Notes under the pieces: model-generated | Database searches by the model: none | Told to the model about the DNA's origin: nothing | The model's input: the letters and a program-made list of their open reading frames with translations, nothing else | Shown: one piece after another, positions 1 through 1,252 of the stretch | Position numbering within the stretch: the stretch's first letter is position 1 | How the letters are laid out: each line of letters starts with the position of its first letter | Program-made: the position numbers and the translations under genes | NCBI GenBank assembly: GCA_000004985.1 | Contig: GG739386.1 | Length of the DNA: 1,543 nt | Reading direction: 5' to 3' (one strand) | Source: Naegleria gruberi | Taxonomy: Eukaryota

Positions 1-717
1 CGAACCCATGTTATCAAATGAATTAGTGTTCATACTGTATGATGCATTAGTACTATTCATACTTTGATTTGAATGATATGCAATCTTGTCTTGATCGTGG
101 TGATGAATGCTTGCCATATTGTTGTTAGAATGATTTGTCGTAGTACCGTTTCCACCAACACTGTTACCATTCACCATGCTAGAATGTTGATGATGCAATG
201 GATATGAAGAAGGAACGTGTTGGTTGTTGGATGTTTTTGTTGTGTTGTTATTAAAGTGGTTTGATTCATTTTCTTGTTGGACAAAAGTTTGGCCTCTGGA
301 AATGAAGGATGCACTTGTTGGCGGAGAGTTTCTATGATTGGATAAACGATGGTTGCTTATTGCTCCTTGTTGAGAACTATCGGTTGTGGAGCTATTTTGA
401 TAGTTAGTAGTAATAGTACTAGTGGCAACAGGACCAACATGATGGACTGGACTTGCATAGGAAGGAGACATGCTTTTATATGCATGTGTATTATTGGTAG
501 ACATGGCTTCATGGTGTGATGCTACAGATGTGGTTGAAGAATAACTTTGTTGTACATGTGGTGGATGTTGGACAAACTCTTCATGTTGTGATTTACTTGC
601 TGTGGTTGTACCAACACGAAGAGATTGATCAGCAGATGATGTCGGTGAGGATACACTCTTCTTTGACTGACCAGATATATTAGTAGAAGAGTTGGATGTA
701 TTTTCAAATGTAGACAT
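1..717 (-). CDS. 5' part of a protein-coding gene. ATG at 717..715; ORF still open at position 1, so the C-terminus is outside the window. It encodes 239 N-terminal residues of a Ser/Thr/Asn/Gln/His-rich low-complexity protein. Product unknown, possibly a fungal transcription-factor-like regulator.
   Basis: Hand translation of the minus strand in the frame of plus triplets 1-3, 4-6 ... 715-717 gives 239 codons with no stop (no tta/cta/tca triplet in that plus frame). The protein starts MSTFENTSNSSTNISGQSKKSVSSPTSSADQSLRVGTTTASKSQHEEFVQHPPHVQQSYSS... and ends at the window edge ...HSNQSMNSTNASYSMNTNSFDNMGS. The first in-frame stop upstream is TAA at plus 739-741, and the first ATG after it is at 717. 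Context is ATCATC-ATG-TCT, with A at -3 and Ser as codon 2, which is typical of yeast. The plus strand over 1-717 is strongly G/T-rich and C-poor, as expected for the antisense of an S/T/N/Q/H-rich CDS. With about 6% stop codons expected per codon in AT-rich DNA, (0.94)^239 is about 4e-7, so an open frame this long is not chance. Confidence 0.8.
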   Translation of the reverse strand, partial: MSTFENTSNSSTNISGQSKKSVSSPTSSADQSLRVGTTTASKSQHEEFVQHPPHVQQSYSSTTSVASHHEAMSTNNTHAYKSMSPSYASPVHHVGPVATSTITTNYQNSSTTDSSQQGAISNHRLSNHRNSPPTSASFISRGQTFVQQENESNHFNNNTTKTSNNQHVPSSYPLHHQHSSMVNGNSVGGNGTTTNHSNNNMASIHHHDQDKIAYHSNQSMNSTNASYSMNTNSFDNMGS

Positions 718-848
718 GATGATGATATGAATTAGTGGTTAAATAATTAAATGCATTAAAGAAGCATTCAAAGTAGGGGGTTGTGTTGGTGATTTTCTTT
801 TTCTCAGGACAAACAACAACCAATAAGAATTGGGAAAATGGATGGAGG

Positions 849-859
849 TAACCTGGTTA
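849..859. repeat. 11-bp odd palindrome TAACC-T-GGTTA.
   Basis: Plus 849-859 is taacctggtta, and its reverse complement is taaccaggtta, so it is a perfect inverted repeat of TAACC around a central base. It shares the ACCTGGT core with the tandem repeat at 994-1015. Confidence 0.6.
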
Positions 860-993
860 TTTGGATCTATTGTATTTCAAATAGTGTGATAGTAGCGAAA
901 AGATTGATGGCTGCTTCCAGTTGTGATTTTTTGTTGGTAGTGTTTCCTTTTTCTAAAGTGGTTTATCATAGTTTACTAGTGTTTTTAGTGTTT

Positions 994-1015
994 GTTACCT
1001 AGTTGTTACCTGGTT
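994..1015. repeat. Tandem 11-bp direct repeat GTTACCTAGTT / GTTACCTGGTT (one mismatch). A third partial copy (GTA) starts at 1016.
   Basis: Read directly: 994-1004 is gttacctagtt and 1005-1015 is gttacctggtt. The core ACCTGGT is itself palindromic (ACC-N-GGT) and also occurs at 851-857. Confidence 0.7.
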
Positions 1016-1084
1016 GTAGATTAGTGCAACAGATGCAGTTGTGAAGACAAGAGAGAAGGTTGTGAGTATGTCCTCGGTGATGCC

Positions 1085-1094
1085 TTATTAATAA
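1085..1094. repeat. Perfect 10-bp AT palindrome TTATTAATAA.
   Basis: Plus 1085-1094 is ttattaataa, which equals its own reverse complement. It sits about 370 bp upstream (minus orientation) of the gene 1 ATG. It may simply reflect AT-richness. Confidence 0.4.
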
Positions 1095-1146
1095 CTTAAA
1101 CCCATTTGTGCTCTGGCCTTGGTGAATCGTGGTCCTAAGAGTGGAT

Positions 1147-1203
1147 GTAGTTGGTGGTGTAGCCGGTAGCCGGTTACAGCCGGATGGTAGTGCGGGTAGT
1201 CGG
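1147..1203. repeat. GC-rich island of degenerate short tandem repeats: GTAG(N0-2)C(C)GG about 5 times, containing CCGG three times plus CGGG and CGG.
   Basis: Plus strand gtagttggtggtGTAGCCGGTAGCCGGttacAGCCGGatgGTAGtgCGGGTAGtCGG. GTAG starts at 1147, 1159, 1166, 1187 and 1196. CGG triplets start at 1164, 1171, 1181, 1193 and 1201, with spacings of 7, 10, 12 and 8 between starts. This is the only GC-dense stretch in an otherwise AT-rich spacer. Confidence 0.6.
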
Positions 1204-1252
1204 AAGCTGTTGAATACACCTTCAAAGCCAAAAATTAATAAAAGTTCTATTT

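Follow-up and report, generated by a model that had tools for sequence, protein, structure and literature searches.

An open reading frame at the edge of a Naegleria gruberi DNA window belongs to NAEGRDRAFT_80435, a gene with a fast-evolving N-terminus and constrained modules downstream

The locus and its open reading frame

The stretch of DNA analysed here (the window) comprises 1,543 nucleotides of contig GG739386.1 from the Naegleria gruberi assembly GCA_000004985.1. Its main feature is an open reading frame (ORF) on the minus strand that starts with the ATG at position 717 and runs off the window edge at position 1, and that forms the N-terminal coding part of the gene annotated as NAEGRDRAFT_80435. 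The remainder is occupied by the end of a second gene on the same strand and by the spacer between the two (Table 1). A preliminary description of the window had read, from ATG 717 to the edge, a continuous minus-strand frame of 239 codons, and retranslation of 717..1 indeed yields 239 sense codons without any stop. The product starts with MSTFENTS, its opening being given as MSTFENTSNSSTNISGQ. Since an in-frame TAA closes the frame at 739-741, the ATG at 715-717 is the first possible start; when the codons ahead of it are included, the open stretch amounts to 246 codons. The start at ATG 717 is common to the GenBank model and to the genes called on contigs L001 and L002, and Met1 aligns with Met1 of the orthologues from N. 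lovaniensis and N. fowleri.

The frame does not appear in the program-made list of ORFs (the ORF track), as had been remarked earlier, because the lister, by its own description, leaves out ORFs that run off an end. The longest entry in the track is an ORF of 61 amino acids at 522-707, and two edge-truncated ORFs were dropped within this window of 1.5 kb.

ORF 717..1 is a coding frame that is not due to chance. When the whole window or positions 1-738 were shuffled with dinucleotides preserved, 0 of 2000 shuffles attained 246 open codons; the longest open stretches had means of 97 codons (window) and 87 codons (1-738), with a maximum of 217. Over the same DNA, each of the other five frames contains 6-24 stops. 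The third codon position of the ORF is heavily skewed (G 8%, T 43%), and its relative synonymous codon usage correlates with that of nearby coding sequence at r = 0.73, the remaining five frames giving values of 0.30-0.67. By mean log codon likelihood, too, this frame scores best. As for the composition of the product, the recomputed values (Ser 21.3%, Asn 12.6%, Thr 11.3%, His 8.4%, Gln 6.7%) are close to those given previously, the translation contains each of the clusters HHQHS, HHHDQD and HPPHVQQ as well as the duplicated SNHR, and the N-terminus is devoid of any hydrophobic stretch, in agreement with the reported lack of a hydrophobic signal peptide. This amino-acid bias does not derive from DNA tandem repeats, because a single array (7 nt x4.6, at 218-249) lies inside the ORF.

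Table 1. Features of the window and conservation of the protein regions encoded by the gene. Identities are those of the N. gruberi protein against its two orthologues.
Feature	Position	Strand	Remarks
N-terminal coding part, codons 1-239 of the 676/678-codon gene	1..717	minus	Open frame, composition, shuffle control, identity, codon fit
Start codon ATG	715..717	minus	First ATG past the in-frame stop
In-frame stop TAA	739..741	minus	Ends the frame 7 codons ahead of ATG 717
Spacer of 535 bp	718..1252	minus	Separates ATG 717 from the stop (1253-1255) of the gene upstream on this strand
Tandem TTGTTACCTAG x2.4 plus third copy GTAACCTGGTT	848-858, 992-1017		130-300 nt upstream of ATG 717
G+C-rich patch	~1101-1200		G+C 0.56; rest of spacer 0.27-0.39
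Second edge-truncated ORF, 96 codons (IVQNKEFILFKAKDG...FMNFHKVKF)	1253-1543	minus	Stop at 1253-1255
Window part of the protein	residues 1-239		18% identity
Remainder of the pre-core region	residues 240-436		27-28% identity
Core (87 residues)	residues 437-523		92-94% identity
Acidic linker	residues 524-591		25-31% identity
C-terminal module (~85 residues)	residues 592-676		40-41% identity

Identity of the gene and its allelic forms

The identity of the gene was established by an exhaustive phmmer search in which residues 1-239 were compared with 1.84 billion cluster representatives. Exactly one match was obtained, a protein of 676 amino acids aligned 1-239 on 1-239 with an E of 2.2e-138, which corresponds to the N. 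gruberi hypothetical protein NAEGRDRAFT_80435 (EFC42297.1, XP_002675041.1, UniProt D2VLE5). The ORF and XP_002675041.1 share the start codon and 238 of 239 residues, and the window thus holds the first 35% of the protein. With the same 239 residues, neither a word-index protein search nor Pfam gave a match. Searches of phage and plasmid collections by blastn likewise produced none. The gene model was already public in GenBank, RefSeq and UniProt, in an entry that carries no assigned function. The 90%-identity cluster of the 676-residue protein also holds six unrelated peptides of 33-51 amino acids (MLKWHDHYYVGESVRDE...), apparently a clustering artefact.

Two allelic forms of 678 amino acids are found in an ENA metagenome assembly and in a Logan assembly of the same run. 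By exact look-up, both of these could be placed on contigs, and the 676-residue protein on none. The ENA contig (L001) corresponds to window positions 1..1046, reverse-complemented, with 2 mismatches (99.8% DNA identity); the 329 bases that precede the ATG are the same in both. Both mismatches between the window and the metagenome contigs are non-synonymous, V97I (window 429) and S228G (window 36), codon 97 being Val in the window and Ile in the reference and in the metagenome alleles. Among themselves, the database forms also differ by the insertion of TN, which keeps the frame, and by an exchange of M and L (protein residues ~297 and ~371), and the window sequence matches exactly 0 of the 3. 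Extension past position 1, which had been proposed as a check of the frame, is provided by L001, where a single ORF continues uninterrupted to 678 codons and includes the core DKKNWKKKRLFS...FQEYDQR; the coding sequence extends ~1.32 kb past position 1 and contains no intron. At the level of sequence comparison, these results demonstrate that window 717..1 represents codons 1-239 of a genuine gene without introns, from N. gruberi or a very close strain.

This identification has a direct bearing on the earlier proposal that the frame encodes the N-terminus of a transcription factor or RNA-binding regulator from a fungus resembling budding yeast, and that an RRM domain, a zinc finger or a zinc cluster would be located further downstream. 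Its composition is indeed like that of fungal activation domains, and a G+C content of 36% together with a 535-bp spacer would suit yeast. However, the protein comes from N. gruberi, a heterolobosean amoeboflagellate that belongs to Discoba and is no fungus, and the only relatives found are from Naegleria. Furthermore, the full protein contains no Pfam family, no RRM was detected (E<=1 for the full protein, E<=10 for its modules), and neither a Zn2Cys6 nor a C2H2 site is possible because there are only two Cys in the 676 residues. A fungal regulator is, therefore, scarcely credible at this locus. The low-complexity, probably disordered character of the N-terminus is the part of that proposal that stands, its fungal attribution and the predicted downstream domains being lost, and comparison with a budding-yeast codon table, also suggested at the time, is irrelevant since the organism is N. 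gruberi.

Orthologues and regional conservation

A word-index search with the full-length protein, in which only the 8000 candidates that have the most words in common with the query were scored, retrieved only two relatives, C9374_006655 of N. lovaniensis (769 aa) and FDP41_006817 of N. fowleri (881 aa). Both are about 40% identical to the N. gruberi protein over 62% of the query, and each is encoded by one continuous genomic ORF (2310 nt and 2646 nt, respectively, including the stop). The two orthologues share with the N. gruberi protein a long N-terminus rich in Ser, His, Asn, Thr and Pro, a near-identical core, an acidic linker and an alpha/beta C-terminal module, and differ from it in their longer His and Ser runs and in many insertions and deletions within the window part.

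Conservation is very unevenly distributed along the protein (Table 1). Codons 1-239 constitute the least conserved part of an N-terminal region of ~436 residues, and orthology is detectable only via the downstream core. Accordingly, the exhaustive phmmer search with residues 1-239 did not recover the two orthologues, because the window part is so diverged. It had been anticipated that the informative part of the protein would lie beyond position 1, and both the core and the C-terminal module are in fact located there. No relatives were revealed in JGI metagenomes when these were scanned with the ORF or the core alignment, nor in contigs of viral and prokaryotic genomes, for which alignments of the core and of the C-terminal module were used; none of these collections is a eukaryote genome set.

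The distribution of conserved and diverged regions also serves to evaluate the possibility that the frame is open merely by chance, or belongs to a pseudogene that is wrongly annotated or in decay, in which case residues 1-239 would have no functional product. It could be argued in its favor that the window part alone has no detectable homologue even in the sister species and is compositionally simple, and that each of its two changes relative to the metagenome allele alters the encoded residue. Nevertheless, the shuffles never reach the length of the ORF, its codon usage is frame-specific, and the frame is continuous with a core conserved at 92-94%. In addition, N. lovaniensis and N. fowleri have kept open their pre-core regions of 489 and 595 residues, which have the same composition, in spite of many insertions and deletions, all of them in frame, as is the allelic TN insertion. 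An accidental or decaying frame is hence very improbable.

The N-terminal region

The pre-core region preserves its composition in the three species, with Ser at 20-22%, His at 7-10%, Asn at 9-14% and Pro at 8-9%, few charged residues and essentially no Trp or Cys. Its length varies from 436 residues in N. gruberi to 489 in N. lovaniensis and 595 in N. fowleri, and its His and Ser runs vary too. In residues 1-239, Ser, Thr, Asn, Gln and His together account for 60% of the positions, and aliphatic plus aromatic residues for 18%. Their normalised hydropathy of 0.383 is below the boundary of 0.415 in the charge-hydropathy rule, by which residues 1-239 and also 240-436 are classed as disordered and the C-terminal module as folded. 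The sequence has drifted fast while its composition was kept (18% identity in residues 1-239 versus 92-94% in the core). Such free drift across species, with composition and presence of the region maintained, is the behavior expected of a disordered region. From its sequence features, the polar, low-charge region of ~436 residues is probably an intrinsically disordered one.

This region is reminiscent of the activation-domain or prion-like disordered regions of eukaryotic nuclear regulators, which are likewise rich in Ser, Thr, Asn, Gln and His and poor in charged and hydrophobic residues. The polar regions of those regulators also combine rapid sequence turnover with conserved composition and are joined to a small conserved domain. 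It is important to remark that the resemblance is one of kind only, given that, unlike in those regulators, no DNA- or RNA-binding domain was identified here and nuclear localisation would be suggested by Lys/Arg clusters alone.

The conserved core and the C-terminal module

The core (residues 437-523) has the sequence DKKNWKKKRLFSIDEVTDLVAFVKQRSENQELTRDVNYAIFKEYEKLQDERRRASVYRKKYVQLFERHLISKDGTIDPSLFQEYDQR. It is surrounded by clusters of Lys and Arg, with KIKKKK and KKNWKKKR directly before it and KKTKKLKR in the linker that follows, which is acidic and rich in Ser, Asp and Glu. The whole protein of 676 residues contains two cysteines. AlphaFold2 models of the core and of the C-terminal module were built on three-sequence alignments. 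For the core, four helices were predicted (among them model residues 25-38, 42-61 and 66-80) with a mean predicted local distance difference test score (pLDDT) of 50, and for the C-terminal module the predicted order is beta-beta-alpha-beta-beta-beta-beta, with a mean pLDDT of 49.

The helical nature of the core brings up the possibility of a divergent Myb/SANT-like three-helix domain for DNA or histone binding, in which case the protein would be a transcription or chromatin factor peculiar to its lineage, with a disordered N-terminus of the activation type. By eye, a basic run is followed by [FW]-S-x-[DE]-E-x-x-x-L-V, a second helix and R-R-x-S-x-Y-R-K-K-Y-x-x-L, a pattern that we take to be like that of Myb_DNA-bind_4/5-type domains and that serves as a lead only. 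The all-helical prediction (pLDDT 50) and the flanks resembling nuclear localisation signals would fit with it as well. However, no Pfam Myb/SANT family was found at E<=10, and a Foldseek search of the PDB with this model of pLDDT 50 produced nothing below E=7.5. With hhalign, a small Myb/TRF/GT-1 alignment reached a probability of 0.4% and the NAIF1 N-terminus one of 0.3%. Like the PB1 comparison described below, these are weak tests, in which each query profile amounts to little more than a single sequence. A Myb/SANT-like core is considered unlikely on this evidence.

In a similar manner, the C-terminal module (592-676) could be envisaged as a PB1 or ubiquitin-like beta-grasp oligomerisation domain within a self-assembling scaffold whose N-terminus drives condensates. 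The predicted order of strands and helix (pLDDT 49) is in line with this idea, hhalign aligns 'IEYFDYSFGEF...KLRI' in register with the PB1 'Y-x-DEDGD...lrl', and the TFG PB1 domain is present in the Foldseek list at rank 15 (TM 0.35, E 2.5). Against it, the hhalign probability is 2.3%, no Pfam PB1 was found at E<=10, and no acidic cluster follows Y-x-D, where the OPCA motif would have one. This makes a PB1-type module decidedly improbable, and neither the Myb/SANT-like nor the PB1-like reading is supported.

Another alternative considers that the core is 92-94% identical between Naegleria species in which the sequence around it has fallen to 18-30%. The core may then represent a domain family that has not been described before and is confined to Naegleria or Heterolobosea, for instance a new nucleic-acid- or chromatin-binding module with the N-terminus as its effector arm. 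This is a doubtful proposal.

The spacer and the neighbouring genes

The 96-codon ORF that enters the window from its other edge is the C-terminus of the upstream gene, on the same strand as NAEGRDRAFT_80435. Like ORF 717..1, it is absent from the ORF track because ORFs running off an end are dropped. The word-index, Pfam and PDB searches gave no homologue of the 96-residue fragment, and nothing corresponding to it lies near the orthologues of N. lovaniensis and N. fowleri. The spacer presumably accommodates the 3' end of this upstream gene as well as the promoter and 5' untranslated region of NAEGRDRAFT_80435, and the repeats TTGTTACCTAG and GTAACCTGGTT are a possible candidate for a promoter element. 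A scan of the spacer for bacterial-type promoters and terminators, unsuited to a eukaryote, detected nothing.

The G+C-rich patch lies 3' of the upstream gene, 50-150 nt past its stop, and contains GTAGCCG x2.3 (1159-1174) and several GCCGG. When the segment 1095-1215 was examined, the RNA fold z-score was ~0 on both strands and no Rfam match was obtained. Over the whole window, the sole outcome of Rfam and tRNA scans was an opuB hit below threshold (E 0.7), which is taken as chance.

On the other side of the gene, the downstream neighbour in N. gruberi (L001 2431-3033) encodes a PLA2G12-like protein (group XII secretory phospholipase A2) of 200 amino acids with an N-terminal hydrophobic segment. 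The orthologues are flanked instead by BCCIP upstream and by an HVSL-like gene downstream, as opposed to the unknown gene and the PLA2G12-like gene of N. gruberi. Within +/-10 kb, N. lovaniensis and N. fowleri have neither of the N. gruberi neighbours, and nothing similar to the spacer DNA occurs at the orthologous loci. As neither neighbour is shared, synteny provides no functional hint. Ahead of the orthologue, 2.4-2.9 kb are free of called genes in N. lovaniensis and N. fowleri (L003 7561-10000 and L004 7100-10000), versus 535 bp in the window; this gap is long relative to the other gene spacings in those loci.

Proposed role and biological meaning

Taken as a whole, the locus is best read as the real N. 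gruberi gene NAEGRDRAFT_80435, encoding a protein with a disordered, fast-evolving N-terminus and constrained modules downstream of the window, an interpretation that we regard as likely. With respect to its role, the protein might tentatively be viewed as a nuclear regulator or scaffold, a much less certain suggestion, whose chances we place well below even. A nuclear role is suggested because the Lys/Arg clusters look like nuclear localisation signals and stand beside an acidic linker with CK2-site-like character. Acidic Ser-rich linkers are typical of nuclear and chromatin proteins. In such a protein, the Ser/Thr/His-rich disordered N-terminus would act as a flexible, heavily modifiable region for interaction or condensation, with no folded domain, and the near-invariant helical core would reflect a tightly constrained contact with a conserved partner, which might be a nucleic acid or a chromatin protein.

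Several considerations weigh against this interpretation. The evidence for the gene considered here is its sequence, and literature searches for all accessions returned no papers. The disorder call for residues 1-239 derives from composition rules only, and the charge-hydropathy rule is a crude one that also puts the conserved core on the disordered side. The restriction to Naegleria rests on the exhaustive search with residues 1-239 only and on a full-length search whose 8000 candidates may have been crowded by low-complexity matches. As regards function, the guess has no homology support: Pfam gave no match with the full 676-residue protein at E<=1 or with the isolated modules at E<=10, the core profile found only noise (E >= 0.55) among PDB sequences, and the C-terminal profile found there only a summed repeat artefact with designed Kelch proteins. 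There was no significant fold match, including the Foldseek search with the core mentioned above, and both AlphaFold2 models are of low confidence (pLDDT ~50).

What the window displays is only the least informative and fastest-evolving part of an already annotated gene, and the finding is in this sense essentially ordinary. It nonetheless illustrates that low-complexity coding sequence rich in Ser, Thr, Asn, Gln and His within AT-rich DNA is not diagnostic of fungi, and that an ORF track of this kind silently loses edge-truncated ORFs. The biological interest resides in the protein itself, an orphan of a genus that includes the pathogen N. fowleri, whose core of 87 residues, unmatched by the family library, by solved structures or by the fold search, is almost invariant.
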